A DNA stretch of 64,000 bases from an uncultured Clostridia bacterium (GCA_947631905.1 CANRND010000010.1:2827-66826), one strand, 5' to 3'; counted from the first letter of the stretch, positions 3,930-23,375 are shown. Numbers and translations: made by a program. Notes: generated from the letters alone by a model not told the origin.

Positions 3930-3930
3930 T

Positions 3931-4572: not shown

Positions 4573-4651
4573 GGATAAAGTTCACTCCTTAAAATTTTAT
4601 TTGTGAAAACCGCTTTTTGCAGTTTTTCAACTTCCGCTTTGTCTGGCTCTT

Positions 4652-4954: not shown

Positions 4955-5200
4955 TGTTCCTTACTCCTTTTTTATACTAACTTGGTTTTGCTTACGTCAA
5001 CTTTACCGTGCGTATCGAGGTCTTCGGCAGTAAAAAACACCTTTTGTTTTTGCGGTGTTTTCACGCAAAAGCCTCGGTTAGTCGCAGAAGTCGTGCTTCC
5101 ACACTTGTCAACGGAAATTATCTGCCGAGGGGCTTTCCTGCCTCGATTTTTCAGTAACTTCCCGTCTCAACCCTATACGCCACAATAACGCAGCTTGATT

Positions 5201-5230
5201 ATAATACCATAATGTCAAGCCGCTTGTCAA
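5201..5230 (-). promoter_or_regulatory. Candidate sigma-A promoter of the S10 operon
   Basis: Minus strand reads TTGACA (5225-5230), an 18-nt spacer, then TGgTATTAT (-10 at 5201-5206). Lies about 245 nt upstream of the rpsJ ATG. Confidence 0.5.
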
Positions 5231-5282
5231 CGATTTTTATGCGCAAATTCCGACTTTTTCCATCGAATCGGCGCTATTTTTG

Positions 5283-5321
5283 CCAAAAAACAAAAAAAGA
5301 GGAAGAGACCTCTCTCCCTCT
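5283..5321 (-). terminator. Rho-independent terminator ending the opp transcription unit
   Basis: Minus-strand RNA AGAGGGAGAGA-GG-UCUCUUCCUCU (11-bp stem with one G-U) followed by UUUUUUGUUUUUU. Starts 7 nt after the stop of the 89-aa ORF. Confidence 0.8.
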
Positions 5322-5327
5322 TATGGT

Positions 5328-5597
5328 TTACAGTCTGCCTGCGGCGGCAAGAATGATGATATAGACGATCGTCAGCGCCGCAAGGGTTGCGAGCATGGGA
5401 ATGACCATCTTCTTCATCACGGTAAAGAACGTGCGCGCCTGTTCTTTGAGCGGCGTCTTTTGCCGCGGCGTTTTTTCTTTCCGCGTGCCGCTCATATCGG
5501 CAACGGTGGAACCGTCATCGTAATAGATAACTTTTACTTTCTTCTCTTTCGGCTTTTCCGGAAGCTGTTCCTCCGTTTTTTGTTCCTTTTTGCGCAT
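5328..5597 (-). CDS. Small basic tail-anchored membrane protein (89 aa), function unknown
   Basis: ORF 5328..5669 trimmed to MRKKEQKTEEQ, whose ATG overlaps the oppF stop (TGATG). Lys/Glu-rich N-terminal part and a single C-terminal hydrophobic helix MVIPMLATLAALTIVYIIILAAAG. Confidence 0.55.
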   Translation of the reverse strand: MRKKEQKTEEQLPEKPKEKKVKVIYYDDGSTVADMSGTRKEKTPRQKTPLKEQARTFFTVMKKMVIPMLATLAALTIVYIIILAAAGRL

Positions 5598-6788
5598 CAA
5601 TTCTCCCCGGCTTCGTCCTGCAACGAAACTGCCTTGACGGGGCCATTCACCTCGCCCTGCGGATAGCAATGGCAGGCGGCGAAATGCCCGGGTTCGTACT
5701 CTTTATAGACGGGTGCGATGTGGCTGCATATCTCCTTTGCCATCGGGCAACGGGTATGGAACTTGCACCCTTTCGGAGGATTTGCGGGCGAGGGGATGTC
5801 CCCTTTCAGCACGATGCGGTTCATCTTCACATCGGGGTTGGGATTGGGTACCGCCGAGAAGAGCGCCTGCGTATAAGGGTGCAGGGGATTTTCGAAAATG
5901 CTCTTCTTGTCCCCAAATTCCACCATCGAGCCGAGATACATCACGCCGATCTGGTCGGAAATGTGCTTTACGACGGACAGATCGTGCGAGATGAACACAT
6001 AGGTAAAGCCCATCGTCGTTTGGAGCTGTTTGAGCAGGTTGATGATCTGCGCCTGGATGGACACGTCGAGCGCGGAGACGGGTTCGTCGCAGATGACGAG
6101 CTTGGGCTGGACCGTGAGCGCGCGGGCGATGCAAATTCTTTGGCGCTGGCCGCCCGAGAACTCATGCGGATAGCGTTCGTAATAATAATCGCGCAAGCCG
6201 CACTGCTCCATGATTTTAAGGACGTAGTCCTTGACTTCGTTCGGCGGCACGATCTTGTGTACCTTTACGGGTTCGGACAGGATCCCCCCCACCGTACTGC
6301 GCGGAGGCAGCGAGGAATAGGGGTCCTGGAAGATGATCTGCATCTGCGTGCGGAGCGGGCGCATTTTGGAGGGCTTGTACTTGGCGATCTCCTGCCCCTC
6401 GAAAAAGATCTGCCCGTCCGTGGGTTCGTGGAGCTTTAAGATCGTTCTGCCGAGCGTCGTTTTGCCGCAACCCGATTCGCCCACGATGCCGAGGGTCTCC
6501 CCCGCTTTGAGTTTGAACGAGACGTCGTCTACGGCGCGGAGAGATACCAACACCTTGCCCGACATCGACTTTTTGATGGGGAAATATTTTTTGAGGTGCC
6601 TGACTTCGAGCAAAACGTCGGGGTCGGGCGGGAGATCCAAATCCGCTTTGGCTTGCGCGTCCCGCGCGGCCTGCTCTTTTTCGGCTTCGAGCGCGTCGTC
6701 GAACGAGGCAAATTCTCCGCCCGCCGCCTGTTCCCGTTCCTCTTTCAGCTCCTCTTTTTCGAGCGCCTCTTCGTAAGATTCTGTCTTT

Positions 6789-6799
<11 letters not shown>
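5597..6799 (-). CDS. oppF: Oligopeptide/dipeptide ABC transporter ATP-binding protein (OppF type) with ~60-aa acidic N-terminal extension
   Basis: Walker A GESGCGKTT, signature FSGGQRQR, Walker B LVICDEPVSALD, and a C-terminal Cys motif GCKFHTRCPMAKEIC...AACHC typical of Opp/Dpp ATPases. Confidence 0.9.
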
Positions 6800-8882
<2,083 letters not shown>

Positions 8883-8883
8883 G

Positions 8884-10026
8884 TCATCTCCTCATCTTGG
8901 GGTCGAGCGCGTCCCTCAGGCCGTCGCCCACAAAGTTGAACCCGAGTACTGCAATGATGATGCAAATTCCGGGCGGCCCCCAGATGTTGAAGTAGTTTTC
9001 AAGGACCTCGGCGTCCTCTGCCGCGCTGACCATAGACCCCCAGGAAGCATAGGGGGGCAGCACGCCGAGTCCTAAATAGGAGAGCGACGCTTCATACAAG
9101 ATCATACTGCCGAGCGAGAGCGTCATCGAAACGATGAGCTGGGGCATGACGTTCGGCACGAGGTGTTTGAAGATCTTCCGCGCCGTGGAGTACCCCATCG
9201 CCTCCGCCGCTACCATGTATTCCTGTTCGCGCAGGAACAATATTTGTCCGCGCACGAGGCGCGCCGTCCCCGACCATGAGAACACGGTCAAAAAGATCAT
9301 GAGATAGTAGATACGGTCGCCGCCTCTCACCCCCATCGCGTCCAGCACCGAGCCTAAGATCAGCAGGATGGGAAGCCCGGGCAGACACATCAGAATATCG
9401 CAGATACGCATGATGACGTTGTCCACCTTTCCGCCGAAATAGCCCGCGATACCGCCGAAGATAACGCCGATGATCATGATCGCAAACACGGCGATAAAGC
9501 TGATGGCGATGGATTTCTGCCCGCCGTACATGAGACGGACGAACACGTCGAGGCCCGTCTGGTCGGTGCCGAGCCAGTGCGCGCGGCTCGGGTAGGAACG
9601 TTTATTGATGCGCGCTTGCGTTTCCACGACCTGGTAGAAGCGGTCTACGATCTGCTCCCCGTTTTCGTCGAGTACGGGCGCGCCGTTTTCTACGCGCGGG
9701 ACCTCTACGAGTTTGGAGTTTTCATAGCTGATGGGGCCGTTATAGTCGGTCTCCGTTTCGCCCCATCCGCCGTATTCGTTGGGAATGGCGGACATGATGA
9801 GCGGTCCCACCCACGAGAACAGGATGAGAGAGAGGATCATGACAAGCCCGATGATGGAGAGTTTGCTGCGGAAGAACCGGCGGGCGACCATCCGCCCGGG
9901 GGACATGAGCCGCACGTTTTTATCGAGGGGCTTTTCGCCGTCCTCCGCGCCCGCGCCGTTTTCGGGGAGACCTTCGGGTAGGTTCGCCGCGGGACCCGTT
10001 AAAGTTTCGTTGAATTCTTCGTTCAT
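8884..10026 (-). CDS. oppC: Oligopeptide ABC transporter permease (OppC type)
   Basis: 380 aa. Has the HWLGTDQTGLDVF motif after TM1 and the BPD-transport EAA-like region AAEAMGYSTARKIFKHLVPN. Long N-terminal tail and an enlarged first external loop. Confidence 0.9.
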   Translation of the reverse strand: MNEEFNETLTGPAANLPEGLPENGAGAEDGEKPLDKNVRLMSPGRMVARRFFRSKLSIIGLVMILSLILFSWVGPLIMSAIPNEYGGWGETETDYNGPISYENSKLVEVPRVENGAPVLDENGEQIVDRFYQVVETQARINKRSYPSRAHWLGTDQTGLDVFVRLMYGGQKSIAISFIAVFAIMIIGVIFGGIAGYFGGKVDNVIMRICDILMCLPGLPILLILGSVLDAMGVRGGDRIYYLMIFLTVFSWSGTARLVRGQILFLREQEYMVAAEAMGYSTARKIFKHLVPNVMPQLIVSMTLSLGSMILYEASLSYLGLGVLPPYASWGSMVSAAEDAEVLENYFNIWGPPGICIIIAVLGFNFVGDGLRDALDPKMRR

Positions 10027-10039
10027 GCGGGGACCTCCT

Positions 10040-11035
10040 TTAAGCGAGTTTTACCCGAGGGTCTACGACCATATACATGAGGTCGGAAAGCAGCACGCCG
10101 ATGACGGAGAGGAGTGCAAGGAACATGTTATAGGTCATGATGACGGGAATATCGCCCGCCTGCGTTGCGGCGAGCGCCCAGTTCCCGATGCCGGGGAGAT
10201 TGAACACTTTCTCCGTGATCATTGCGCCCGAGAAGAGGGAGGGAAGCACGCCCGCCATCATCGTCACGATGGGGATCATCGTGTTGCGGAACGCGTGCTT
10301 GTAGATGACTTTCGTCTCTTTCAGCCCCTTTGCCCGCGCCGTGCGGATATAGTCGGAGTTCAGCACTTCGAGCATATTGGTACGCATATAGCGCATGGTG
10401 CCGCCGATGCCTAAGATGACCGTGGACGCGACGGGCAGGGTGATGTGGCGCAGATAGTCGCCGATCTTTCCGAAGAACGTGAAATCCGCCGCGGCATTTT
10501 CGAGACCCGCGGGATAGAACCAATTCAGCGGGGCCGTTGCAAACGCTTTCTGCAAAACTCTGCCGAGGAAGAAGCTCGGGAGCGAAATGCCGATCATGAC
10601 GAGGACGGTTACCACGTAGTCGCGGATGGAATACTGGTGGGTCGCCGCGGTGACGCCGAGCGGGATGGCGATCATGTATTCGAAGATGATCGCAATAAAC
10701 GCGATGATGAACGAAACACCCATATGGTTGGCAATCTCGGAAACGACCTCGCCGCCCGAGACGAAACTCACGCCGAAGTCGAGACGGCACAGCGACCAGA
10801 GCCACGAGCCGTAGCCCTGCAAAATGCCTAAAAAGCTCGAATCGGAGAGATTGTAGCGCTCATACATCTTCTCAATGGTCTCCTGCGGGACCTGCGCGCC
10901 GCCCTGGTTCATAGCCGACAGCTTCTGCATGACGAAGTCCACGGGCATGCATCTTACGAGGATGTAGATGATCAGGGAAACGCCGACCAGAATGATGATC
11001 GAAAGCCCCAACCGTTTGAAAATATATTTGAGCAT
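10040..11035 (-). CDS. oppB: Oligopeptide ABC transporter permease (OppB type)
   Basis: 331 aa, MLKYIFKRLGLSIIILVGVSLIIYILV and DYIRTARAKGLKETKVIYKHAFRN are canonical OppB/DppB motifs. Confidence 0.92.
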   Translation of the reverse strand: MLKYIFKRLGLSIIILVGVSLIIYILVRCMPVDFVMQKLSAMNQGGAQVPQETIEKMYERYNLSDSSFLGILQGYGSWLWSLCRLDFGVSFVSGGEVVSEIANHMGVSFIIAFIAIIFEYMIAIPLGVTAATHQYSIRDYVVTVLVMIGISLPSFFLGRVLQKAFATAPLNWFYPAGLENAAADFTFFGKIGDYLRHITLPVASTVILGIGGTMRYMRTNMLEVLNSDYIRTARAKGLKETKVIYKHAFRNTMIPIVTMMAGVLPSLFSGAMITEKVFNLPGIGNWALAATQAGDIPVIMTYNMFLALLSVIGVLLSDLMYMVVDPRVKLA

Positions 11036-11048
11036 AATTTAACTCCAT

Positions 11049-11088
11049 AGTCCTGCCGTGGGGTCCACGGCAGGACTGTTTGTTTTTT
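11049..11088. promoter_or_regulatory. Intercistronic 13-bp hairpin between oppA and oppB
   Basis: AGTCCTGCCGTGG-ggt-CCACGGCAGGACT (11049-11077). The T-run (GTTTGTTTTTT) follows it on the plus strand only. On the mRNA (minus) strand it sits just 5' of the oppB RBS GGAG. Confidence 0.5.
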
Positions 11089-11162
11089 CGGGAAGCGGGT
11101 CCCCTTTGGGGAGTCCGCCCTTTCTTTTTCACGGCCGCATGCCGCGGGCCGCCCTCGGGGAA

Positions 11163-13976
11163 TTATTTGGTAAATTCGAGTTCCCAGATCTTGGCAAGGG
11201 GCGAGGTGTAGGGATTGACCGCAAGCTGGCCCTGTTCGTTGTGCGGCATAGAGCTTTCCTCGATGACGTTGAGGTTATAAGCGTACAACGTCTTTCTCTG
11301 GTAGAGCGGAAGCTCTACGGCAAGGTCGAGAACATAGCTCATCGCGTCTTTGTACTTGGCGGCACGATCGGCGATAACGTCGGTCTCGCGCGCTTCGTCG
11401 ATCAGGACGGAGAGTTTGTTGAGAATATCTCTCTCTTCCTTGTATTCGCTCTGCGCCGTATCCTTGATGGAGGGATAACCCCAGGCAAGCACGCTGGTCG
11501 CGGTGGAGTTCTTATGATACACCTGATACATATCGGGGTCGATCGTGGAACCCCACGCTGCCGCCCATACGGCAAGGGAACCTGTGGAGAGCTTGGTGAG
11601 CCCGTTGGCGTCGGGCTTGATGGAAACTTTCCATCCGCATTCGTCGTTCAGAATATCCATTGCGTTCTTGAACACAAGATATGCGGGGTGGTCGTACATG
11701 TTGGCGCCTGCAATGGTGAATTCGATTTCGAGCGCGGAGTTCCCGGCCGCTACGTTCGCCTGCGCCATATACTGCTTGATGAGTTTCACCGCATTTTCCT
11801 TGTCGGTGTATTTGGTGTACTCATGCTTGTTGTCGTCGTCCTTGTTCGCGGTGGGGTTGGTGCCGTCGTAAGTGGTACCCGTCTTTCTCGGATAAGCCCA
11901 GCTCACGCAGGACATCGGCCAATAGATATTTTCCGCCGTGCCGGCCAGATAGTATTCGAGCGCGAGCGAGGTATCCATCGCCGCCATAATGGCTTTACGG
12001 AGTTCGAGCTTCGGCACTTTTGCGGCGTTGATGCCGATGTAGCCGTAGCCGAGCTGCCAGCTGTCCACAGAGCCGACGCCCTTGCCTTTCAGCTTATCGA
12101 TCTTCTCCGCGTTCTTTTTGGTGAACTGCGGGCTGACAAAGTGGACCTGTCCGCTTTCGAGAGTGGAAAGCGCGTTGGAAACAGACAGCTCCATGTAACG
12201 CATATGCTCGATTTTGGGAACGCACGGCGTTACGCCGTCGAGCGAGAAGTTGTGGTTCGCCTTGTAATAGACGATATTATTCTCAAAGAAACCCTCTGCG
12301 GTGGGTTGGTCTCTGTCGTTTTTATCCGTTGCGATGTAGGGACCCGCGCCCAGCGGCACTTTGGTCTTTTTCACGCCCCAGCTGTTGTCGCCCTGCAAAA
12401 TGGTCGTCTGGAAGTCGGAATCCGCCCACGCGACGCCGAACTTGTTGCTCGCAATATCCACTTCGCCAACGTTTTGCCAGCAGGATCTCTTCAAGAGTTC
12501 CTCATTCGAAGCGGTATCGGGGATCGCAAGATTTTTCTTTGCGAGAGCGGTCTGCGCGCCCTTGTCGGAATAATAGTGATAGGGCGCTACGGTGAAGCCG
12601 AAGTTCCACTTCGCTTTGGGGTCGATCTTGTTGATGGTGATGCGCAGAACGTCGTATTCGCCGGCATTTTGGGGAGTGCCGTCGGGGTTGTGGTCGTGCG
12701 CGACGGGATAGCTCTTATCGCCGATGTCGACTTTGGTCTCCTGCGTGGTATGGCCGAGGGAGACGATCCCCGAAACATTCTTATGTTTGAGTTCCGTGCC
12801 GTCCACGTCTCTGTGGAGGAGAATATCTTTCGCCTTGCCGGTGAACTCGGTGAGCAGCTGCGTACCCGTCGCCCAGTATTGCAAAACCTGGTCGAGCGCG
12901 CCCTGCGTGTTGCTTCTGTAAACGAAATCGATCGCCTGCTCTTCGTTCGTGATGGTGTTGGGGTTATAGCTCAGGGTTGCCTTTTCGATCTTCTCCATGT
13001 TTTTCCCTTTGCCCGCTTCGGTCGGATACTCGACCTGCACGAGGTGTTCCGCATACATGAAAGAAATGATCTCGTCGAAGCCCGTTCCGATCTGCTGTCC
13101 GCTGTAATAAATGGGCGCGGACTTGTAGGGTTCCTCCGTGTAGGAACTGCGCGCGCTCTTATAGTCGCTTTTAAGTTCTTCCTTGAACTTGTCGAGCGCG
13201 TTCTGGTAGTCCTCCCAAAGCTGGTCGCATGCCGCCTCATAGTCCTCTAAGCCGATCGCTTCGAGATAGCTGTCGGGAAGAGGATAATCGGGATTGCCGC
13301 CATTATGATAGGCTTCTTTCATCGCCGCGATCGCGTTCTTCATGTCCGTCTCGCTCGCCGAATGTGCTGCGCTCGGGGAAGGATCGTCCATCTGCGCGAC
13401 TTCGCGGTAAAAATCCACCAACGCCTGTATGCGGTTCCGTGCATAGTTGTTTGCGCTGTTGTTGGTTTCCTCGTCCGCGTTGTCGTCGCTCGTATTCTTC
13501 TGCGTTCTGTATGCCTGCAAGCCCACGATGTCCGTCGAATACATGGTGGTGGACCCCGTGTAAGCGGGATCGAGATAGACATAGAGATTGAACATGACGT
13601 CGTTCATCGTGAGCGGTACGCCGTCCGAGAATTTGAGCCCGTTTTTGAGGACGTAATAATAAGAGGTGGTGTCCGTTGCGGGATCGTATTCGCTCTTATA
13701 GTCGAGAACGACGGTGGGTTCGTCGTTTCCGTAGGCAAGATCGCCGTTTTCGTCCGTGGAGAGCATGGAGATCTGGGTCTGGCCTACGACGTCCATATCC
13801 GTGCCTGCGGTGGAATAGAACGGGTTGTAAAGCTCGTTCAGATCTTCCGTCATGATGACGAGCGCCGCCTTGTCGGAGGGGATGCCGCCGCAACCTGCGA
13901 GGAGACTGACGCTCCCCATGCAAAGCACCGAACCGACTGTGAGTGCGATTGCACGTAGCGCAAATTTCTTTTTCAT
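11163..13976 (-). CDS. oppA: Oligopeptide-binding lipoprotein, SBP family 5, unusually large (937 aa)
   Basis: Signal peptide with lipobox LLAGC. Family-5 core YYYVLKNGLKFSDGVPLTMNDVMFNLYVYLDP. First gene of the ABC cassette. Confidence 0.88.
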   Translation of the reverse strand: MKKKFALRAIALTVGSVLCMGSVSLLAGCGGIPSDKAALVIMTEDLNELYNPFYSTAGTDMDVVGQTQISMLSTDENGDLAYGNDEPTVVLDYKSEYDPATDTTSYYYVLKNGLKFSDGVPLTMNDVMFNLYVYLDPAYTGSTTMYSTDIVGLQAYRTQKNTSDDNADEETNNSANNYARNRIQALVDFYREVAQMDDPSPSAAHSASETDMKNAIAAMKEAYHNGGNPDYPLPDSYLEAIGLEDYEAACDQLWEDYQNALDKFKEELKSDYKSARSSYTEEPYKSAPIYYSGQQIGTGFDEIISFMYAEHLVQVEYPTEAGKGKNMEKIEKATLSYNPNTITNEEQAIDFVYRSNTQGALDQVLQYWATGTQLLTEFTGKAKDILLHRDVDGTELKHKNVSGIVSLGHTTQETKVDIGDKSYPVAHDHNPDGTPQNAGEYDVLRITINKIDPKAKWNFGFTVAPYHYYSDKGAQTALAKKNLAIPDTASNEELLKRSCWQNVGEVDIASNKFGVAWADSDFQTTILQGDNSWGVKKTKVPLGAGPYIATDKNDRDQPTAEGFFENNIVYYKANHNFSLDGVTPCVPKIEHMRYMELSVSNALSTLESGQVHFVSPQFTKKNAEKIDKLKGKGVGSVDSWQLGYGYIGINAAKVPKLELRKAIMAAMDTSLALEYYLAGTAENIYWPMSCVSWAYPRKTGTTYDGTNPTANKDDDNKHEYTKYTDKENAVKLIKQYMAQANVAAGNSALEIEFTIAGANMYDHPAYLVFKNAMDILNDECGWKVSIKPDANGLTKLSTGSLAVWAAAWGSTIDPDMYQVYHKNSTATSVLAWGYPSIKDTAQSEYKEERDILNKLSVLIDEARETDVIADRAAKYKDAMSYVLDLAVELPLYQRKTLYAYNLNVIEESSMPHNEQGQLAVNPYTSPLAKIWELEFTK

Positions 13977-14020
13977 TTTCCTATACTCCTTTTCTTGATT
14001 TCGCTATATAAAAATTTATA

Positions 14021-15649
14021 TCAACCGATTTTGATTTCGCCCGTGGCGGAGTCCGCGACGGAGGCGGAAATGCGATCCGTTTTTAAGACGATCCTATCGC
14101 CGATCTGCACGCCGCCCGTGACGAAGTTGCCCGTCAAAAGCCCGATCTGGTAGGGATACGTGGGTGTGGCCAGCCCCGTATCGGGGTTGAAGCCTCTGTC
14201 GTAATAGACGGTGTCCGCGATGAAGAGTTCGCCCGAAACCGTTACGTTGGTCAGAGTCGCTTCTGCGCTCATCTCGCCCGCGAAAAGCCCGAACATTGCA
14301 CCCGTTTTGCGGGAAGCCGCTTCGAGATTATAAGTAATGTTCCCAAACGTGATGTTCTCGAACGCTGCGGTTTCGGAGATCGTGCCGAACAGCCCGCCCC
14401 GCGTGTCTTCCGCCGAGGTCTGATGAATGGTAACGCCCGAGATCGTATGGTTGTTGCCGCGGAACGTACCCGTGAAACTGCCCTGGCTGAATGCGGTGGG
14501 CCATTCGTCCTCTTCGCCGTATTCGAGGTCGGCAAGCAATTCGAAACTGCGCGCCGCGCCCGCGTTTGCCGCAAGCTGTTCTTTGGTTTTGATGCGGTAC
14601 CAAACGCCCTTTTCCCATTTGGCGAAGTAGCGGGTGACATTCCCCGTTGCGGTGGCCGTCTCCTCGTCCCACGTGCCGTGGTTTTCGAGGACGGTCAACG
14701 CTCCCGTGCCGTTTGCAAAGTCCTCTTCGGTGGCGTAAGCGTTGACAAACGTCTTGTCTGCGGGGGTGGAGAAGTCGCCGTATTCGAGCGCGCCCGTCTC
14801 ATCGTTCCAGACGGGAACGGAGAGCGTGCCGAGGTCCTCATGAATGGGATTGAAGCGGCGGGAAGAGACGGAATACCACGTCTTTCCGTTGTCGAGGAAA
14901 GATACGCCGCCGCAGGTCTCGGTAATGGTTTTTCCGTTCTCGTCCACCTCGCCCGTATCGATCTGCGCGGTGCAGCGCTCGGGCTTGGTCTCTTGGTGAT
15001 AGGCGGTTCCGCACTTTTCGCAAACCCATTCCTCTTCCTGTCCCTGCAACTCATAGGAGAACTCGGGGACCCACGCCGCGTAGAGCGTGAACGCATATCC
15101 GCCGTCCTCTTCGTATACGAAATCGTTGCGTTTGAGGAGAGAGCTGAAATCCCATTTTTCCGCATAAGTATAGCCCTGCGGCTTGCCGTATGCGGAATAA
15201 TAGGTCTTTTGCACGTTGCCGTCGTCGTCATACACGGGATTTCCGCCCGCGTCGAGAAGGTCGGTCTCTACGTCGCAGAGGTTCCCCTCTTCGTCGAGCG
15301 GGTTTCCGTTCCCGTCCACACGGGGCGAGCGCACGGCGTACCATCCCGCAAGAAAGTAGCCGTCCCGCTCCACGTTGAAGCTGTCGGTGCCGATCGGGCC
15401 TTTCCCCGTATCCTGGGGTTCATACAGCTTGATCCCCTTTTGTACGTCCTCGTACCGATAGGTATTCACGATCTTGCTGTCGTTTTTTCCCGCGGCCTTG
15501 CCCCCGTTCGCGTCGTAACAGACGGAGAACGTATAGCCCTCTTGCGCGTAGTCTTTGTAGGGACTATCGTTGGAACTGCACGCGCCGAAGATGAGCGTCC
15601 CCGCGCACAGCGCCGCAAGCCCGATGATGATCTTCGTTCTCTTTCTCAT
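14021..15649 (-). CDS. Lipoprotein with Listeria-Bacteroides (InlB B-type) repeat, a Cys4 motif and a GLUG-like C-terminal region
   Basis: Signal plus Cys (LIFGACSS). YTFSVCYDANGGKA...RDGYFLAGWY and YAFTLYAAW are typical Flg_new/InlB-B repeat motifs. Also CEKCG...CTAQ...ETCGG, and FTGTFRGNNHTISGVTI...GGLFGTISE, which is GLUG-like. The ATG lies 1 nt after the upstream stop. Confidence 0.8.
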   Translation of the reverse strand: MRKRTKIIIGLAALCAGTLIFGACSSNDSPYKDYAQEGYTFSVCYDANGGKAAGKNDSKIVNTYRYEDVQKGIKLYEPQDTGKGPIGTDSFNVERDGYFLAGWYAVRSPRVDGNGNPLDEEGNLCDVETDLLDAGGNPVYDDDGNVQKTYYSAYGKPQGYTYAEKWDFSSLLKRNDFVYEEDGGYAFTLYAAWVPEFSYELQGQEEEWVCEKCGTAYHQETKPERCTAQIDTGEVDENGKTITETCGGVSFLDNGKTWYSVSSRRFNPIHEDLGTLSVPVWNDETGALEYGDFSTPADKTFVNAYATEEDFANGTGALTVLENHGTWDEETATATGNVTRYFAKWEKGVWYRIKTKEQLAANAGAARSFELLADLEYGEEDEWPTAFSQGSFTGTFRGNNHTISGVTIHQTSAEDTRGGLFGTISETAAFENITFGNITYNLEAASRKTGAMFGLFAGEMSAEATLTNVTVSGELFIADTVYYDRGFNPDTGLATPTYPYQIGLLTGNFVTGGVQIGDRIVLKTDRISASVADSATGEIKIG

Positions 15650-15650
15650 A

Positions 15651-18600
15651 TTATTTGTCGTCCGATGATTGTTCGGTCCCCTCTTGGGGTTCCGTTTGTT
15701 CGGTCTCTTCCTTATTTTCCTCTTCCGCGCTTTCTGCCGCGTCGGCGTCTTGCGTCTCTTCGGTCTCTTCGGAGGTTTCGCCCTCGGTTTCGGACGTCTC
15801 TTCCGCAGGTTCGGTCCCGTCCGTCTCCCCTTTCTTGGACTTTTTGAGGAGCAGGACCGCTACGACCGCCGCAATCGCCGCGACCGCGACAACACCCGCT
15901 ACGATATACAGCCAGAGATAAGGGTTCCCTTGGGGCGTATTGTCCTCGTCGGGGCCTTTCTCCTGCGAGTGCAGATAGCTGATGCGGTTCTCCGCGGTGA
16001 GGAGTTTTTGCAGATTTTCATTGTAAACGCAACCCTGCTGGTCGGGATTGAGCGCGTCGTAGAGTTCTCTGATGTGCTTCACCGTCGCCTCGTCTTCGAG
16101 GGACACGGTCTCGGGCAGAGCGTCGATGAGGTCGATGACAAGCTGTGCGTCGTCGCTGACCGCCGTCGGGCCGTTGAGGATCACGTCAAAGTACTGTCCG
16201 TAGATGAAGTTCTCATAGCCCGTGCCGTTAATGGGGCGGACCATGACGAGCGTCTTGTTCTTGTGAACTTCTCTTCCTTCGGGGGTGCCGATCGCCGCAA
16301 CGAAGTTCGCGCCGAAGAGGATCCCCGTGGGATCGGCGCTCCACGTGCGGTACGGAACGATTTCCGCCCCGTAATATGTGCCTCTGAAATTGTAACTGCC
16401 CACGTTATAGAGGAGATAGTTCGAGATACCCGAATCGCCCGTTCTTCCGAGCGCGAACTCGGCGTCGTACTGCTCTTCGAGGATCGGGGCTTCGATGCTC
16501 GTAAATGCGACCGCCGCAAGCTGGTTGCATTCGTAGAACGCTTTATCGCCGATCGCCTTTACGCGGCGGCCGATTTCCACGGAGTAGAGCTTGGAGCCGA
16601 GGAACGCCCGCGCGCCTATGCGCACAACGTCTTTCGCTACGGTGAACGATTCTCCTTTCTTCTCGATAGGATAGGTGATCAAAACGTATCCGTTGGGGCA
16701 TCTGCCGAAGAGAACGCCGTCGACAACTTTTGCGTTTTCGCCGAGGCCGAAAGTGGTTTCGCCCGCGTCGTTCTTGAAATCTCCGATCTTACATCCTGCG
16801 AACGGATTTTCTCCCAACAGCGTGAGGTTTTCGCCGAGTTTCACGGATTTGAGCTTGCTGTCCGCGAACGCGAAGTTGCCGAGGAGGGAAACGCCCGAAA
16901 GGTCGGCGGTTTCAAGCGCGGTTTGTTCAAACGCCTGCGCGCCGATAGAGGCCGCTTTTTCGAGATTGTTGACCGTTGCAAGTTGCGTGCAACCCGAGAA
17001 CGCGCTCGCGCCAACCGCAGCGTTTTCCGCAAGGGAGACCGCCTTGATCGCCGTGTCCGTAAACGCGCCCACGCCGACGGAAGCAAGTTCTCCCGCCTCG
17101 AAGCCCATAAGCGCGGTGCAGCCGTAGAACGTTTCGGCGGGAACATTGTCGAGCCACTCGGGAAGTTTTACGGTCGTAAGGGAAAGATTTTGCCCGAACG
17201 CGCCCGCCCCGAGCGGAGTTTCCGCTTCGGGATCGAGGCCCGAAAGATCGATTTCGGTGAATGCCGCGGCAAAAGGCGTTGCGCGGACGGCCACCAGACC
17301 GACGTCGGAATAATTTACATATTCAAGCTGCTGCCCCATGAACGCATAGTTGCCGATGGACTTCACTTTGGAGAAGTCGATGTCGCTGAGATAATGGCAA
17401 CCGCTGAACGCTTCGTCTCCGATCACCGTACCCTCGCCGAGCGTCACCGTCGTCAAACGGCCGCCGATGGAGATCGTTCCGCCGCTCGTTGTAGGCAGGT
17501 TGTAACTGCCCGAGCCCGCACCCTGGAAAGCAAAACCGCCGATCGTTACATTCTTGCCGATCGTAACACTCGTCAGCGAGGACAAGTAGGGGTTGATATA
17601 GGTGGGGATCGACTGTGTGTTTGTGACGTAGGTATTGCCGCTGCTGATGGGACCGCCCGTCAGAGTGGCAACGCTGATCGCGGAGAACGCGCCGTTCCCG
17701 ATCGTAACGTTGTCCCCGACCGTGACGGTGGTCATGGCGTAATTCGCAAAGAACGCACCCTCGCCGAGAACGGTCTGCGCGCCCACGCTCACCGTACGGA
17801 GCGAGTAGTTCTGCGCAAACGCATACTCACCGATTTTCATGTTTTCGGGCAGAGTCACGGTAAGAAGATTGGTCGCGGAGAACGCGCGCTCGCCCACCGT
17901 TATGCCGGGGTTCAAAGTCGGAAGGGTGGTGATGGCGGTGCGGAAGAACGCATAGTCGCCCACGCTTTCAAGCCGTCCCAGCGAAACGGAACTGAGTTGC
18001 TGGCAATTCGAGAAAGCGTAGTCCCCCACTTTCGTTACGGCGGGCATAGTCACTTGCGTAAGGCCCGCGGCAACGGAGAACGCGCCTTCGCCGATCTCGG
18101 TGATCTGCGTATCGCGGAACGTCATTGTGGCGGGAGCGATGAGCGCAAGAACGCCCGTATCTTTTTCGAGAAGATACTGCCCGTTGGGCGAAGCCGTAAA
18201 GTTGGGGTTGGCGGGATCGACTTCGAGCCTTGAAATCTTGGTGCCGCGGAGGGCATAGTCGCCGATGACTTCCACGTCCGCGCCGATTTTGAGCTTGCTA
18301 AGCGCCGTGCATCCGGCGAAGAGCTGTTCGGGCAGAACGGAGGCGTTGAGTTCCATCACCTGGATCTTCGAGCAACCGTAGAACGCCTGCGCGCCGATCT
18401 TGACTTTCCGCGCCGAGATGGAGACGCTTTCAATGGCCGAGTCGCCCGCAAACGCCTGCGCGCCGATAGATTGGGTCGTGGCGGGAAGCGAAACGCCGAT
18501 AAGCCCCGCGTTTGCGAACGCGCCGTCCCCGATCGCCACGATGGAGCGGAACGGGAAGCTCGTCAGCAAGCCGCAATTTTCGAACGCCTGCTGGTTGATG

Positions 18601-21600
18601 AATTGCAGATTGTTCTCTCCATTGAACTTGACGGTGGCAAGCGATCTGCAATCGCGGAAAGCGCCCGTCTGGATCTTCGTCAACGTAGAGGGGAACGTTA
18701 CGGAGCGCAAATTCGTGAGGCCCGCAAAGGCGTACATGCCGATGGTCTTGACGCCCTCGGGAATGACGACTTCGGTGATGATGTCGTTGCCGATATACCA
18801 CTGTTTGCTGTAAAGCGGGTCCTCTTCGGTGATCTCGTCGCCCGCGGCGAGGTCTTTCGGCACAAGTTCGTAGTTGGAGAACGCGAACTGCTGGATCTCC
18901 GTAATGCCGAGGTCGAGAGGGATCTCCACCTTATCCCCGAGGCCCATATAGCTGAGAAGATACGGCCCGTTCGTGGTGTAAGGCGCTTTCACCGTGACGG
19001 AGATGGAACGCGTCATAATGGTGGACTTATATTCCCCCGTGTCGGGATCGCGCATATACAGGCGGACGGAAATATTCGCGGAACGCTCGTAATTGAGCGG
19101 TTTGCCGCTCGTGTCCACGTTCTTCGCGGTGATCTGCCCCGTCTCCTTGTTCACTTCCACCACATTGGGGTTGCTCGAAGTGAACTCCACTTTATATTCG
19201 CTTTCGTCGAAATACCCTCTCAGATCGTATTGGATGGTAACGGATTCGGAGGGAAGCATTTTGAGCGAGTAGCTATCCGAAGAAAACAGGACGATGTCCC
19301 CCGCTTCGGTAGCGCCGAGATCGCGCTCGTCGCTCGAAAGGAAGTAGTAGACGCGGTTGACTTCGTAACCCGTCAAACGGAAGTTCTCCGCAATGGGACG
19401 GTCGAAATCTTCGAACTCATCATCTTCGGGTTTCCAGACGTGTACTTTTACTTTCGTTGTGATCGCGGGGTTGTGGTTGCTCGTTGCGGTGAGTTCCGCG
19501 TCGCCCGAGGAAACGCCGATGAGCTTGCCGTTGACGACCCGCGCGACTTTCTCGTCGCTCGAAGTATAAATGATGCTCTCCGCCCATGCCACGTCCTGCG
19601 AAGGGCTGATCGTGGGTTTGAGACGGTAGATCTCGTTGGGAGAGATGTTGATCACGTCTTCCTCGAAATCGATTTTGCCGATCTCGTCGGGGATCGTAAG
19701 CTCGAACATGGAAACGTTCTGCGCGCAGTCCACAAGCTGTACGAGGAAACTGTTCTTACTGTAAGATTCCTCCTTGATGATGTTCAGGCTGTCGGTAAGA
19801 TCGATCTGTACGACGCTCGTGGAGTTGCGCCCGCCGTTGACAGGAACGATGTAGCGGTCAAAACTGTAAAACCCGTACGGGGCGTCGGCGCCTGGTTCGC
19901 TTTCGACGAGATAACCCGGGATGATGCCGCGCACATAATGATTGTCGTATACGCTGATATTTGCGTAGAGCCTGTTCGTTTCGGTGTCCCTGTCGTACTC
20001 GTAGGTATATTCCACGCCCGTGACGATGGGAGCGGTGAAATCGGCGTAGAACGGGAACTCGAACGTGTTGTTGGCAACGCTGCCGTCCTTGTAGTCGATA
20101 TAGCCCGTCAAACGGAAGAGATACTTGGTATTGTTTTTGAGATCGTAATCCGCCGCGCTGAAATCCACGTCGAAACTGCTGCCGTAGATCGCGCCGCCGT
20201 AGTTATACGCCTTGGACAGGTTGCGCTCTTCCTTTGCGAACACGAGTTCGCCCGTCGTGGTATCGGTGACGGTCGCCACCATCCGCTTCGCGCCGCGCAG
20301 AAGCCCGAGCTGTACGCTGTAAATGGAGTTGATGCCGCCGCCCTCGCCCGTTTGGTTGGTGAGCGCGATGTGGTCCCTGTCCGCGGAGATCTTGTTCGTG
20401 GAGCTGGGGTCCTGCAAGAACGGGAACGCGCCGAGATAGGCGATGTAGTCGTCGTACAGACCGCCGATGGGACGGGTCGCATAAGCGTCGGGGAGAGTCT
20501 TTTCGAGCGTCTCTTTGCTGTCGTCGAGTTCGTCCGCGTTGGTCGCAAAGTAGTCGAGGTCGAAGAGAGGCGCCGCGCTCCACGAACCGTAGAACGCGAG
20601 GAAAGGTGCGTTCAGATCGTACTTGTTGCTGCCGTTGCTCCTGTCTTTGAGCGTGACGAACCCTTCCACATACATGCCGTTTTTGAAAGAACGTTCGATG
20701 TATTCTTTATTCTCTTCGGTAAGGGTCACCGTGAGGGTGACGGTTGCGGTGGTTTTGCCGCTGACCGTGACGGAATTTCCCGAACGGGTGCAGTTTTCGG
20801 CTCCGGTCACTTCGATCTTCGCGCCGTCGAGCAGATAGCCTTTTTCCGTAACGGTGGTATCGCCCTTGTAGGTGAGGACCTCGCTCACGCCCTCCGTCAT
20901 CACGGTCGCGCTCACATCGTAAGAAACGTTGCTGTTTCCGATGTTGACGATGTTGAACTTCATCGTGTACACGCCCGTTTTGCCGGGGTCGTCGCCGAGT
21001 TCGATCTTGGCCTTATCCATGATCTCGCCCGAATCCCGGTCGAACGTCTCCAAATATGCGGGCGAGTGGGTGGATTTTTCGAGATTGGCAAGCCCCGCGC
21101 CCTGTTTTCTCACGGAGAACGGAAGCCCGTTGGTGTTGAGCGCAATGTCCGCGGTGGACATCATGATCTGGTTCACGGTTGCGGTGATCTTGCGCCTGGT
21201 CTCGGGATCGTTGCCCTCGAACCCGAAGTTATCTTTCACGTATTGGCGGACAAGCGCCGTAACGCCCGCCTGGTTGGGGGACGCCATCGAGGTACCCGAC
21301 ATTCTGTCGTAGCTCTGCCCGGGGATGGCGGAATAGATGTCGCCGCCGTGCGCCGTGATCTCGGGTTTGATGCGGAGATCGGGCGTGGGACCCCACGAGG
21401 AGAAGTCGGACATGAACGGACCCGCTTCCTGAGAGCGGCTGATCCTGATCTTCTTCGTAGCGGCTCTCAGAAGCAGTTCGCCGTCGTCCCGCGAAAGGGA
21501 GCAGACGGGATAGTTGCCGAGCCGCCCGACGTTCATCGAGATCGTACCCGAAACGTTGTTATAGATGATGCAGCCCACCGCGCCGTATTTGCGCGCAAGG

Positions 21601-23201
21601 CTCGCTTTTTCTTCGAAGTTGGTCTGGCCTCTGCAAATGAGCGCGATCTTGCCGTCGAGCCGTCCGTTGGACTTGCCCGTGCCGTCGTCGTATTCCATGA
21701 AGTTCTGCGCGCTGCCGATGCCGGGGATGATCTCATACTCGAAATCCCACGTATCCGCGCCCGCGGTCACATAGCCCTGTTCCGCGCCGTACGCCAAGAT
21801 CTCTTCGACGAAATCTTTGGGTTCCGCCGCGCTGTCGGAGGCCTCGGTGAAATAGATGATCGTTTCGCCCAGTTTGAGATAGGGCGTTTTCACACCGCTG
21901 ATGGAGGCGACGGAGAGAGCCGCGTCGTAAGTGGAGGGCGAACCGACGGTGGAAGAGTCGGGATTGCTCGTAAGCCCGAGGTTGCCGTTCTTTTCCGAAC
22001 CGAAAGTGGAGTTATAGCTGTTGGAGGCGGCCACCACAAGGCTGATGCCCTGCTCTTTGATCCTGTCGTACACCGCATAGCGCTGGTCCGAGTCCACCTC
22101 TCTCGTAAAGCCCGCGGCGGAGCCGAGGGACATGTTGATGACGTCTACGCCGAGTTTCACGCAGTCTTCGAGGGCGGCGACGATCCACGAGGTCCTTGCG
22201 CCGTCCGTTCTGTCGGAGAATGTCTTCATCACGGCGAGCTGTGCGTTGGGCGCGACCCCTCTGATGCCGTTTTCGTTCACGTCTCTGTCGTTGCCGACCA
22301 TAACGCCCGCCACGTGGGTGCCGTGTTCGTTGTAAATGGGCGAAACGTCGTCGTCCTTATCCGCGTAGTCGTAAGCGTAGGGGACCTTGCGGCTCAAATA
22401 GACGTTCGCCGCCGTCAGACCGGGGGTCGTTTTGGCGGCTTCGAGTTCCCCCACCACCGTGCGCAAAGTTGCGGGCGTGATCACGTCCGAAGCCGCGTCC
22501 GGGGTAAAGCGGGCGGGATCGAACGCGGTGTGCGTAGAATCGAGACCGGTATCGAGTACGGCGATGACCGTACCCGTGCCGTCGTATTCGGAATCGGAGC
22601 TGTCGAAAATACCCGTGTCGTACACGTTGACTTTGTTTTCGACGACCTGCGTCTCGCACGCGGCGTACTCTTCGCCGACCATTACGCTCGCCTGCCCTTT
22701 CACGGCGTTGCAGAGCGTGTTAAAGGCGCTCGCCTTGATGATGACTTCCACGCCGCCGAGGAGGGTATCGAAGCGGTCGCCCGTCTCGTACTGCACGCCC
22801 GCGTTGGTGAGTTTCGTCAAAAGCGCGTTGCTCTTCTTTGCAATGGCGGAAGATACCGCTTTCCCCTCGCGGGTCGCGGCATACTCGCCCACCGTCATAT
22901 CCCCGCCGAACGCGTTAAAGCCGTCGAGGACGGTATCGCTCTCCACGCCGAGGATCACGGAGATCTCACGGTCGCCCGCTACGCCCTCCGGGAGTTTTTC
23001 TACCACGGAACTGTCGAAATATTGCGAAAGATCGCTGCCGACCGCTCCCGTAACGTCGACAACTTCGCCCTTCTCTGCGCCGCTGCTGGCAGACAACGTT
23101 TTTCCGTGCGATTGCAAAGAAGGCAATACCGCCGAAAAAACCATCGTGCCGGAGAGTATCAAAGCGGACATTCCGAGAAGAAATTTCCTTTTGGACTTCA
23201 T
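15651..23201 (-). CDS. Giant (2516 aa) cell-envelope subtilisin-family (S8) protease fused to Big_2 and BspA-type leucine-rich repeats, with C-terminal TM anchor and acidic tail
   Basis: Signal peptide. Catalytic motifs VLDTGLD (~nt 22550), NEHGTHVAG (~22315), GTSMASP (~21285). PA-like insert GKIALICRGQTNFEEKA. Big_2-like segment VARVVNGKLIGVSSGDAELTA (~19441-19560). About 800 aa of xIGxxAFxxC LRRs (~16500-18905). TM helix YLWLYIVAGVVAVAAIAAVVAVLLL (~15843-15922), then a Glu/Thr-rich tail. Confidence 0.9.
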   Translation of the reverse strand: MKSKRKFLLGMSALILSGTMVFSAVLPSLQSHGKTLSASSGAEKGEVVDVTGAVGSDLSQYFDSSVVEKLPEGVAGDREISVILGVESDTVLDGFNAFGGDMTVGEYAATREGKAVSSAIAKKSNALLTKLTNAGVQYETGDRFDTLLGGVEVIIKASAFNTLCNAVKGQASVMVGEEYAACETQVVENKVNVYDTGIFDSSDSEYDGTGTVIAVLDTGLDSTHTAFDPARFTPDAASDVITPATLRTVVGELEAAKTTPGLTAANVYLSRKVPYAYDYADKDDDVSPIYNEHGTHVAGVMVGNDRDVNENGIRGVAPNAQLAVMKTFSDRTDGARTSWIVAALEDCVKLGVDVINMSLGSAAGFTREVDSDQRYAVYDRIKEQGISLVVAASNSYNSTFGSEKNGNLGLTSNPDSSTVGSPSTYDAALSVASISGVKTPYLKLGETIIYFTEASDSAAEPKDFVEEILAYGAEQGYVTAGADTWDFEYEIIPGIGSAQNFMEYDDGTGKSNGRLDGKIALICRGQTNFEEKASLARKYGAVGCIIYNNVSGTISMNVGRLGNYPVCSLSRDDGELLLRAATKKIRISRSQEAGPFMSDFSSWGPTPDLRIKPEITAHGGDIYSAIPGQSYDRMSGTSMASPNQAGVTALVRQYVKDNFGFEGNDPETRRKITATVNQIMMSTADIALNTNGLPFSVRKQGAGLANLEKSTHSPAYLETFDRDSGEIMDKAKIELGDDPGKTGVYTMKFNIVNIGNSNVSYDVSATVMTEGVSEVLTYKGDTTVTEKGYLLDGAKIEVTGAENCTRSGNSVTVSGKTTATVTLTVTLTEENKEYIERSFKNGMYVEGFVTLKDRSNGSNKYDLNAPFLAFYGSWSAAPLFDLDYFATNADELDDSKETLEKTLPDAYATRPIGGLYDDYIAYLGAFPFLQDPSSTNKISADRDHIALTNQTGEGGGINSIYSVQLGLLRGAKRMVATVTDTTTGELVFAKEERNLSKAYNYGGAIYGSSFDVDFSAADYDLKNNTKYLFRLTGYIDYKDGSVANNTFEFPFYADFTAPIVTGVEYTYEYDRDTETNRLYANISVYDNHYVRGIIPGYLVESEPGADAPYGFYSFDRYIVPVNGGRNSTSVVQIDLTDSLNIIKEESYSKNSFLVQLVDCAQNVSMFELTIPDEIGKIDFEEDVINISPNEIYRLKPTISPSQDVAWAESIIYTSSDEKVARVVNGKLIGVSSGDAELTATSNHNPAITTKVKVHVWKPEDDEFEDFDRPIAENFRLTGYEVNRVYYFLSSDERDLGATEAGDIVLFSSDSYSLKMLPSESVTIQYDLRGYFDESEYKVEFTSSNPNVVEVNKETGQITAKNVDTSGKPLNYERSANISVRLYMRDPDTGEYKSTIMTRSISVTVKAPYTTNGPYLLSYMGLGDKVEIPLDLGITEIQQFAFSNYELVPKDLAAGDEITEEDPLYSKQWYIGNDIITEVVIPEGVKTIGMYAFAGLTNLRSVTFPSTLTKIQTGAFRDCRSLATVKFNGENNLQFINQQAFENCGLLTSFPFRSIVAIGDGAFANAGLIGVSLPATTQSIGAQAFAGDSAIESVSISARKVKIGAQAFYGCSKIQVMELNASVLPEQLFAGCTALSKLKIGADVEVIGDYALRGTKISRLEVDPANPNFTASPNGQYLLEKDTGVLALIAPATMTFRDTQITEIGEGAFSVAAGLTQVTMPAVTKVGDYAFSNCQQLSSVSLGRLESVGDYAFFRTAITTLPTLNPGITVGERAFSATNLLTVTLPENMKIGEYAFAQNYSLRTVSVGAQTVLGEGAFFANYAMTTVTVGDNVTIGNGAFSAISVATLTGGPISSGNTYVTNTQSIPTYINPYLSSLTSVTIGKNVTIGGFAFQGAGSGSYNLPTTSGGTISIGGRLTTVTLGEGTVIGDEAFSGCHYLSDIDFSKVKSIGNYAFMGQQLEYVNYSDVGLVAVRATPFAAAFTEIDLSGLDPEAETPLGAGAFGQNLSLTTVKLPEWLDNVPAETFYGCTALMGFEAGELASVGVGAFTDTAIKAVSLAENAAVGASAFSGCTQLATVNNLEKAASIGAQAFEQTALETADLSGVSLLGNFAFADSKLKSVKLGENLTLLGENPFAGCKIGDFKNDAGETTFGLGENAKVVDGVLFGRCPNGYVLITYPIEKKGESFTVAKDVVRIGARAFLGSKLYSVEIGRRVKAIGDKAFYECNQLAAVAFTSIEAPILEEQYDAEFALGRTGDSGISNYLLYNVGSYNFRGTYYGAEIVPYRTWSADPTGILFGANFVAAIGTPEGREVHKNKTLVMVRPINGTGYENFIYGQYFDVILNGPTAVSDDAQLVIDLIDALPETVSLEDEATVKHIRELYDALNPDQQGCVYNENLQKLLTAENRISYLHSQEKGPDEDNTPQGNPYLWLYIVAGVVAVAAIAAVVAVLLLKKSKKGETDGTEPAEETSETEGETSEETEETQDADAAESAEEENKEETEQTEPQEGTEQSSDDK

Positions 23202-23248
23202 GTTGTTTTACCTCCGAGAAGTTCTTTCTTCGAGCATTATACCGTACT

Positions 23249-23277
23249 ATTATAACCGAATGGAATTTTTTTTGCAA
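23249..23277 (-). promoter_or_regulatory. Candidate sigma-A promoter of the protease/opp unit
   Basis: Minus strand reads TTGCAA (23272-23277), a 17-nt spacer, then TATAAT (23249-23254). A second TATAAT lies at 23236-23241. The start codon at 23201 has RBS GGAGG. Confidence 0.6.
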
Positions 23278-23324: not shown

Positions 23325-23375
23325 TTATTCATAAAACATGAAAATTTCGTGAAAATATTCATGTTTATTCATAAA
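23325..23375. promoter_or_regulatory. 51-nt composite operator-like element
   Basis: Layout is [TTATTCATAAA][ACATGAA][aatttcgtgaaaata][TTCATGT][TTATTCATAAA]. Two 11-nt direct repeats 40 nt apart flank a 7-nt inverted repeat. Lies about 50-100 nt upstream of the -35. Confidence 0.4.

Follow-up and report, generated by a model that had tools for sequence, protein, structure and literature searches.

We describe a block of eight co-directional genes in a 64-kb window (the whole stretch of DNA that was analyzed) from an uncultured Clostridia bacterium of the rabbit gut. The block occupies the minus strand and encodes a giant S8-family protease, an accessory lipoprotein, the five components of an oligopeptide (Opp)-type importer, and a small tail-anchored membrane protein, and it is bounded by a single promoter on one side and an intrinsic terminator on the other (Table 1). 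A first-pass annotation of the window had singled out this set of genes as a single operon that joins extracellular proteolysis to peptide import, and its gene content and coordinates proved to be correct.

Table 1. Positions of the genes and sequence features of the block, counted from the first nucleotide of the 64-kb window
Feature	Position	Strand	Description
S8 protease	15651-23201	-	2516 aa; Peptidase_S8
Accessory lipoprotein	14021-15649	-	542 aa; lipobox ..FGAC
OppA-like family-5 substrate-binding lipoprotein	11163-13976	-	937 aa; SBP_bac_5
OppB permease	10040-11035	-	331 aa; BPD_transp_1
OppC permease	8884-10026	-	380 aa; OppC_N and BPD_transp_1; loop after first transmembrane helix enlarged
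OppD ATPase	6789-8882	-	697 aa; ABC_tran in two pieces and oligo_HPY
OppF ATPase	5597-6799	-	400 aa; ABC_tran and oligo_HPY
Small tail-anchored membrane protein	5328-5597	-	89 aa
Promoter	23249-23277	-	Sigma-70-type; -35 TTGCAA, 17-nt spacer, -10 TATAAT; consensus scan 10/12
Conserved upstream block	23337-23372	-	TGAATAAACRTGAATATTTTCAC..; about 70 to 100 nt before the -35 element; largely conserved in seven-species alignment
Conserved upstream block	23491-23531	-	TGTTTGCCG.TTGCAGAAAGTGTTTGAAACTTTCTTTTTT; inverted repeat AGAAAGT/ACTTTCT, then T-run; seven-species alignment
Hairpin in 127-nt oppA-oppB spacer	11047-11079	-	13- to 15-bp G+C-rich stem
Intrinsic terminator	5283-5322	-	11-bp stem (hairpin 5322-5297) and T-run; closes the unit

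Read from the protease gene to the small open reading frame (ORF), the junctions of the block measure 1, 44, 127, 13, 1, −11, and −1 nt. The lipoprotein start codon lies 1 nt past the protease stop codon, oppD and oppF overlap by 11 nt, and the start of the small ORF overlaps the oppF stop codon by 1 nt. Six of these lengths (1, 44, 13, 1, −11, and −1 nt) had been quoted exactly in the first-pass annotation, which called the junctions tight. That description fits the six but not the oppA-oppB junction, which had been left unlisted and which spans 127 nt and carries a hairpin.

Conservation of gene order across lineages

A scan with the lipoprotein, conducted on one genome per species, returned eight loci (GTDB species) from rabbit and roe-deer gut metagenome-assembled genomes labeled "Clostridia bacterium." A metagenome scan using the lipoprotein alignment added 38 loci, with lipoprotein identities of only 28 to 33%, and three further contigs were reached, one through a distant lipoprotein and two through homologues of the small protein. 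The order protease, lipoprotein, OppA, OppB, OppC, OppD, OppF, small protein recurs in the 8 species genomes, the 38 metagenome contigs, and the 3 further contigs. All six complete sister loci carry the eight genes in this order, with junctions of 1, 36 to 67, 73 to 104, 12 to 15, 1, −11, and −1 nt; one of them (L006) departs from these values, and only at oppD-oppF. Among the metagenome loci, the protease was found upstream of the lipoprotein in 27 of 38 and OppA downstream in 32 of 38, the remainder being cut by contig ends. No counter-example was encountered, as the partners stood apart in none of the 49 loci examined.

The genomic surroundings of the block vary. The three further contigs hold the same eight genes among unrelated neighbors (thioredoxin-like in one case, polysaccharide synthesis in another, lipase and alcohol dehydrogenase in the third), flanking genes differ between lineages, and junctions in the distant loci range from 0 to 84 nt. 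The family occurs in gut samples of rabbit, roe deer, and gazelle, as well as in other sources. Conservation of the gene order had been suggested as a check on the operon when it was first proposed, and the order was indeed kept in every locus read, across differing neighborhoods.

The departure in L006 coincides with an unusual segment. At positions 17140 to 17900 of that locus, a stretch of approximately 220 aa, hydrophobic and with the appearance of multiple transmembrane (TM) helices, lies in frame ahead of the OppF ATPase and accounts for the 661-nt spacing that separates oppD from oppF. The segment may have arisen by insertion of a gene or by fusion of a membrane domain to the N terminus.

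Promoter, terminator, and transcript evidence

The sequence highlighted earlier as the one good promoter of the block is borne out by comparison between species, as its core, GAAATGCTTGCAAAAAAA..CGGTTATAAT, is invariant in a seven-species alignment in which most of the surrounding spacer is variable. The sequence TATAAT occurs again about 12 nt downstream. Of the two conserved blocks farther upstream, that at 23337-23372 shows a symmetry of the TTTCAC-GAAA type and is a candidate regulator site, and that at 23491-23531 may serve as an operator or weakly terminate the upstream unit. Among the promoter blocks examined, the one upstream of the protease gene was the only one with phylogenetic conservation. 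An internal promoter in the spacer between the lipoprotein and oppA genes was considered and rejected; the spacer is A+T-rich but not conserved among sister species, and the idea finds no support there.

At the far end of the block, a terminator is present at the equivalent place in six of six sister loci. No other convincing sense-strand terminator was found inside the block, where the remaining minus-strand matches have stems of only 5 to 7 pairs (the terminator scan of the region gave a total of 36, compared with 26.3 ± 4.7 in shuffled sequences). The earlier claim that no sense-strand terminator precedes position 5283 therefore holds for canonical terminators.

Two public RNA runs contain parts of the locus (the gut metatranscriptome X15, and X14 for one junction). 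The assembled contigs are 160 to 260 nt in length, unstranded, and sparse, and as they are 85 to 97% identical to the window, most come from relatives. Of the seven junctions, five are spanned: protease-lipoprotein, lipoprotein-oppA, oppA-hairpin-oppB, oppB-oppC (only just), and oppD-oppF. We regard these junction-crossing contigs as supporting evidence that falls short of proof. Independent internal units, which the first-pass annotation had named as the outcome that would overturn its proposal, did not appear; junction lengths are kept among sister loci, and RNA contigs cross five of the junctions. Its proposal of a single operon is supported with respect to the promoter, gene order, junctions, and terminator, but a uniform transcript along the entire block is made less likely by the conserved hairpin between oppA and oppB.

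A conserved hairpin between oppA and oppB

The region from 11030 to 11100 folds with a ΔG of −28.2 kcal/mol and a z score of −4.9, and none of 200 shuffled sequences folded as well. The hairpin ends 3 nt before the Shine-Dalgarno sequence of oppB and lacks a sense-strand U-tract. Six sister species share it at this position; the stem AGTCCTGCCG/CGGCAGGACT is kept in L001 and L003 to L006 and present in a variant form in L002, and the loops differ in both sequence and length. In distant relatives, the oppA-oppB spacer is only 12 to 48 nt long and contains no hairpin. A dispersed element resembling repetitive extragenic palindromes was considered and rejected, as the hairpin occurs once in the window and, in relatives, only at the oppA-oppB junction.

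In other ATP-binding cassette (ABC) importer operons, hairpins that follow the binding-protein gene give rise to differential expression, with malE-malF and hisJ-hisQ as examples. By analogy, the hairpin described here is a candidate attenuator (partial stop), processing site, or 3'-end stabilizer and may represent a clade-specific device for graded expression. Given its conservation, graded expression along the operon is likely, rather than one uniform transcript.

A more radical alternative is that the genes are functionally linked and the hairpin ends or processes most transcripts, such that an abundant message covers the protease, lipoprotein, and oppA, and a rarer message covers oppBCDF and the small ORF, the latter produced either when transcription reads past the hairpin or from an internal promoter that escaped detection. 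The length of the gap and the stability of the fold, the invariant stem and variable loop at a fixed position, the uniqueness of the hairpin in the window, and the mal and his precedents all speak for such a split. The missing U-tract speaks against it, as do the short, hairpin-free spacers of distant relatives, the lack of any conserved promoter-like block between the hairpin and oppB, and one relative's RNA contig, which runs from oppB through the hairpin and a further 126 nt upstream. We consider a split transcript possible rather than probable; being compatible with co-transcription of the block, it refines that reading more than it competes with it.

The protease resembles streptococcal and lactocepin-type cell-envelope enzymes

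The protease consists of a signal peptide, a Peptidase_S8 domain with a PA insert, an fn3_5 domain, a Big_2 domain, approximately 800 aa of BspA-type leucine-rich repeats (LRR; Pfam LRR_5), a TM helix, and an acidic cytoplasmic tail. Pfam matches include Peptidase_S8 (E value, 3e-46), PA at residues 509 to 577 between the catalytic His and Ser, fn3_5 at residues 735 to 857, and eight stretches of LRR_5. In a sequence search of the PDB, residues 202 to 875 matched C5a peptidase, SpyCEP, and "cell envelope proteinase A" with E values of 1e-59 to 1e-52, and the LRR part matched solved BspA-type LRR proteins. The motifs of the catalytic triad, VLDTG (Asp at approximately 217), HGTHV (His at approximately 293 to 296), and GTSMASP (Ser at approximately 638), are intact in 14 of 14 members checked (13 relatives and the window).

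The C-terminal TM helix spans approximately residues 2433 to 2452. A signal peptide and a TM helix at the C terminus are also present in most relatives, and the tail that follows the helix is acidic in sister species. No LPXTG motif was found in the protease, and neither LPXTG/sortase anchoring nor wall-spanning or S-layer anchoring is seen; the best NCBIfam model, that of the LPXTG-anchored SGO_0316 family, scored 247 bits against a cutoff of 1400. The protein is thus predicted to be an S8 protease of the ScpA/SpyCEP/lactocepin type, with the catalytic residues and domains of cell-envelope proteinases but not their mode of anchoring.

The accessory lipoprotein and its fusions to the protease

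The N-terminal part of the accessory lipoprotein is a Listeria-Bacteroides (Flg_new-like) repeat carrying an insert specific to the clade, the C-terminal part is a beta-helix, and the protein also has a Cys4 insert. The window sequence gave no significant match in Pfam or NCBIfam, and a PDB sequence search with it returned nothing. Among 36 members of the family, Flg_new was matched in 14 and Peptidase_M26_N (the N-terminal region of M26 IgA1 proteases) in 6. An AlphaFold (AF2) model built from 36 sequences was almost entirely beta, with a predicted local distance difference test (pLDDT) score of 88.7, and only one fold match was meaningful, to the beta-helix of 3n6z, a putative IgA1 protease (E value, 1e-3; 142 columns). 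As this match covers only a partial beta-helix, no enzymatic function can be assigned to the lipoprotein. The family, which carries no name, is large: it comprises at least 331 clusters at 90% identity, and a profile search of 1.84 billion representatives gave 471 representatives at 50% identity with an E value of 1e-30 or less.

The profile search also found the lipoprotein domain as the C terminus of much longer proteins, two of which were read. P0248 (2220 aa, cut at its N terminus) runs from the middle of the protease through the LRR part, a TM helix, an acidic cytoplasmic linker, and a second TM helix to the lipoprotein domain, which lacks the lipobox cysteine; P0315 has the same layout. 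Because the resulting topology is coherent (outside, inside, outside), we take both to be genuine fusions. Fusion of the protease and lipoprotein in some lineages is a classic sign of two proteins that act side by side.

An enlarged and elaborated Opp-type importer

By its predicted domains, the importer has the structural makeup of the Opp/Dpp family (Transporter Classification 3.A.1.5), namely, a family-5 substrate-binding protein, two permeases, and two ATPases with oligo_HPY. OppA matched SBP_bac_5 in Pfam with an E value of 1.5e-19 and showed weak sequence similarity to curated Opp models. Its AF2 model (pLDDT, 80.7) was matched best by Bacillus subtilis AppA in Foldseek (E value, 1e-16) and aligned to Lactococcus lactis OppA with a TM-target of 0.70 to 0.73; DppA and other family-5 proteins, MppA among them, were also matched (E values, 1e-16 to 1e-13). 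The extra length of OppA lies mainly in a helical insert of approximately 230 aa at about residues 160 to 390, and all relatives of the protein are 855 to 972 aa long. Because the family-5 fold also binds other ligands and the curated Opp matches are weak, the peptide specificity of OppA rests on context, and it is the linked protease alone that points to oligopeptides as the probable transported substrate.

OppF matched NCBIfam dipeptide and OppF models, scored 420.6 bits against the cutoff of 408 of the dipeptide ATPase subfamily model, and has an acidic N-terminal extension of about 65 aa. OppD falls below curated cutoffs because its ABC domain is split by an insert. It combines an N-terminal extension of approximately 65 aa, in which the motif H/N-Y-L-[ST]-G-x-E-[IV]-R-x-I-A-K is conserved family-wide, with a tandem-repeat insert of approximately 300 aa between Walker A and the Q-loop (about nt 7590 to 8480). 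Alignment showed that the insert varies widely in size: it is missing in L013 and L047 (OppD of 384 aa), comprises one unit of approximately 55 to 70 aa in L006, L027, L037, L048, and L049 (440 to 458 aa), and forms an array of approximately 300 aa only in the window and L001 to L005 (697 to 727 aa). This restricted distribution indicates that the array is a recent local expansion and not a defining part of the system.

Motifs resembling D-E-N-G-x-P were observed in three places, namely, the OppD insert (7590 to 8480), the lipoprotein insert (15200 to 15340), and the OppC loop (approximately 9700 to 9760). All three inserts are elaborations of the rabbit-gut clade, and that of the lipoprotein is absent in L008 and most distant relatives.

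A small tail-anchored protein closes the block

The last gene encodes a protein with a basic N terminus and one C-terminal TM helix, in which alignment revealed the invariant motif K-x-K-[IV]-x-Y-x-D-D...D-[ML]-S. Its homologues form at least 2565 clusters at the 90% level, none of which has a Pfam family or a name, and it is the last gene of the block in every context read, including L013, L027, L037, and L047 to L049. Of the parts that the first-pass annotation had listed as non-canonical, two (the lipoprotein and the small protein) are conserved across the family, whereas the third, the repeat array of OppD, belongs to the rabbit-gut clade only.

Divergence within the block follows cellular location

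Ratios of nonsynonymous to synonymous substitution (dN/dS) were 0.21 to 0.28 for the protease, lipoprotein, and OppA and 0.12 to 0.18 for OppB and OppC; values for OppD and OppF were mostly 0.04 to 0.09 (0.13 for OppD in comparison with L005), and the upstream flanking gene gave 0.03. Rates of protein change thus follow the cellular location of each component. At the amino acid level, the flanks are 96 to 99% identical and the protease, lipoprotein, and OppA are 58 to 72% identical. A hypervariable island was considered as an explanation and rejected, because the downstream flank encodes ribosomal proteins (S10, L3, and L4) and the upstream flank a highly conserved GGGtGRT protein, which inflates the raw contrast in identity. 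What is left is a dN/dS gradient from 0.03 to 0.06 up to 0.21 to 0.28, accompanied by a modest rise in dS, which is ordinary for exposed proteins and no proof of diversifying selection.

Comparison with L002 revealed a step in identity within the block. From the oppD repeats to the S10 gene (window 4680 to 8035, L002 17637 to 20993), the two share 96.6% DNA identity, against 73 to 76% over the rest of the locus. The step falls inside the OppD repeat array, and the contrast points to recent interspecies recombination within the operon.

A proposed protein-foraging module

We propose, with a probability that we put at roughly 70%, that the block serves uncultured gut Clostridia as a co-transcribed module for protein foraging. 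One conserved promoter would drive the eight genes, and in the rabbit-gut clade, the hairpin would probably lower or process the transcript such that the protease, lipoprotein, and OppA outnumber the membrane and ATPase parts. The lactocepin/C5a-peptidase-type subtilase, presumably of broad specificity and tethered to the cell surface by its TM helix, would cut external protein into oligopeptides, with the LRR array probably capturing substrate protein or spacing the catalytic head from the membrane. The accessory lipoprotein would be the protease's neighbor and partner, with a possible part in substrate binding, tethering, or maturation. Enlarged OppA would bind the released oligopeptides and pass them to OppBC, with import powered by OppD and OppF, and the 89-aa protein may be an additional importer subunit or a regulator.

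A bolder extension of this proposal, which we advance as speculation, is that the eight products form one physical Gram-positive surface machine, a "proteolysome." The protease and lipoprotein might dock on the helical insert of OppA so that peptides are channeled straight to the importer. In the cytoplasm, a scaffold might couple or regulate both activities; the protease would contribute its acidic tail to it, OppD and OppF their extensions, OppD also its insert, and the small protein its conserved K-x-K-[IV]-x-Y-x-D-D motif.

Several points weigh against a co-transcribed foraging module. A promoter inside coding sequence is possible, with weak matches (9/12) at 19592-19563 and 11542-11514. 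The RNA support is thin, in that the contigs are short, unstranded, and mostly from relatives, DNA carry-over is possible, and the oppC-oppD and oppF-small ORF junctions are not covered. The closest solved relatives of the protease, as identified by sequence, are host-protein-specific virulence enzymes rather than nutritional ones. The family-5 fold binds nickel, sialic acid, EDTA, and murein peptides as well, and the match of OppA to curated Opp proteins is weak. The organism, moreover, is uncultured, and the block is known here from sequences alone.

In an alternative reading, the protease is mainly a colonization or immune-evasion factor, combining an LRR adhesin with a host-protein-cleaving subtilase in the manner of C5a peptidase, SpyCEP, and IgA proteases, and the Opp importer merely salvages peptides or is linked for regulatory reasons. 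Consistent with this, C5a peptidase and SpyCEP are the best solved relatives, BspA-type LRRs are known as adhesins and the HupY/LrrG model matches, the beta-helix of the lipoprotein resembles the N-terminal region of IgA1 protease, and dN/dS values of 0.21 to 0.28 in the exposed parts would fit pressure from host or phage. Those values are, however, well below 1; the strict and ancient linkage to a complete importer in 49 of 49 loci argues for a shared flow of substrate; the importer genes belong to the same operon and promoter as the protease; and the spread over rabbit, roe-deer, gazelle, and other gut samples makes a single host target unlikely. On balance, we judge a primary role in colonization to be unlikely. 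That the system imports signaling or cell-wall peptides (for quorum sensing or murein recycling) instead of food peptides seems to us highly improbable: Opp importers take up signaling peptides in Firmicutes, MppA-type family-5 proteins bind murein tripeptide, and MppA is among the fold matches of OppA, but a 2500-aa surface protease with approximately 800 aa of LRR far exceeds what is known for the maturation of signal peptides, the block contains no regulator or pro-peptide gene, and the block is conserved whole across differing genomic neighborhoods.

Neighboring units and other features of the window

Downstream of the block lies the S10 ribosomal protein operon (S10, L3, and L4; window 3303 to 5230, minus strand), which has its own promoter at 5230-5201 with an 11/12 match and a TG extension. 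The S10 operon also adjoins the block in L001, L002, and L004 to L006, the sister loci that reach that far, but not in distant relatives. The upstream unit comprises NifU-like and GGGtGRT genes and is closed by its own strong terminator at 23789-23764. Elsewhere in the window, a second giant ORF of 3074 aa (28965 to 38189, minus strand), whose sole Pfam match is a right-handed beta-helix region, probably encodes another surface protein. An Rfam scan of the window found no known RNA family at the locus; its single match was a flavin mononucleotide riboswitch at 44761-44878 (minus strand; 104.8 bits against a gathering score of 66.2).

Comparison with known systems

A literature search for a protease-Opp operon of this kind returned only the system of lactic acid bacteria (LAB) and unrelated papers. 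In LAB, the surface S8 protease PrtP and the lipoprotein PrtM work alongside an Opp importer that takes up oligopeptides; prtP and prtM are divergently transcribed, and opp forms a separate unit (PMC8037685). The block shares with this system an S8 subtilase with PA and Fn3-like domains, a lipoprotein gene adjacent to that of the protease, and OppABCDF, including an OppA whose fold matches that of L. lactis. The differences are nevertheless extensive. The genes here form one co-directional block with one conserved promoter, and the protease ends in a TM helix and an acidic tail, in contrast to an LPXTG or wall-spanning anchor. The protease has gained approximately 800 aa of BspA-type LRR, and OppA is about 350 aa longer. 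PrtM is a maturation lipoprotein of the PrsA/parvulin peptidyl-prolyl isomerase family, whereas the lipoprotein of the block has no rotamase or PrsA match in Pfam or NCBIfam and instead contains a B-repeat and a beta-helix. OppD and OppF have N-terminal extensions, OppD has an insert, and an additional 89-aa membrane protein is present. The definition of the LAB system also includes CodY control of both the protease and importer units. In its proposed function the block resembles PrtP/PrtM/Opp, yet it is not a strict member of that system.

Two other systems share individual components. ScpA, ScpB, and SpyCEP (ScpC) resemble the protease in the catalytic domain, PA insert, and first Fn3-like domain (E values, 1e-59 to 1e-52), but these are LPXTG-anchored, monocistronic virulence factors of approximately 1100 to 1650 aa with narrow host substrates, and they have no LRR array, linked importer, or accessory lipoprotein. 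The Opp importers of Mollicutes likewise have an enlarged binding lipoprotein and ATPases interrupted after Walker A by an insertion. OppD was matched by the NCBIfam model of the minimal-cell OppD (MMSYN1_0167; 561 positions) with 313 bits, below the model's curated cutoff of 740; the match lies past the N-terminal region of the model, where the model's insert is probably located. Mollicutes, however, belong to a different phylum-level lineage, the likeness of the inserts is, as far as seen here, one of position, and we know of no linked surface protease in Mollicute Opp operons.

What is new here is the architecture and breadth of the system, together with two large uncharacterized families; the principle of a protease joined to Opp is textbook knowledge for LAB. 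Little is known of how the gut Clostridia of herbivores and humans, many of them uncultured and often dependent on amino acids, acquire nitrogen. The block would offer these lineages a concrete route, with surface proteolysis hard-wired to peptide import, and it could guide the choice of cultivation media (protein or peptide feeding). The closest parallel in overall logic is found in the Sus-like loci of Bacteroidota, which also unite surface capture, surface hydrolysis, and dedicated import in one conserved locus. This likeness is an analogy only, as SusC/D rely on TonB-dependent transport rather than an ABC importer, the components are unrelated, and the envelope is of another kind. Should the parts of the block assemble into a single complex, Gram-positive bacteria would have an equivalent of the Sus-like utilization machines.

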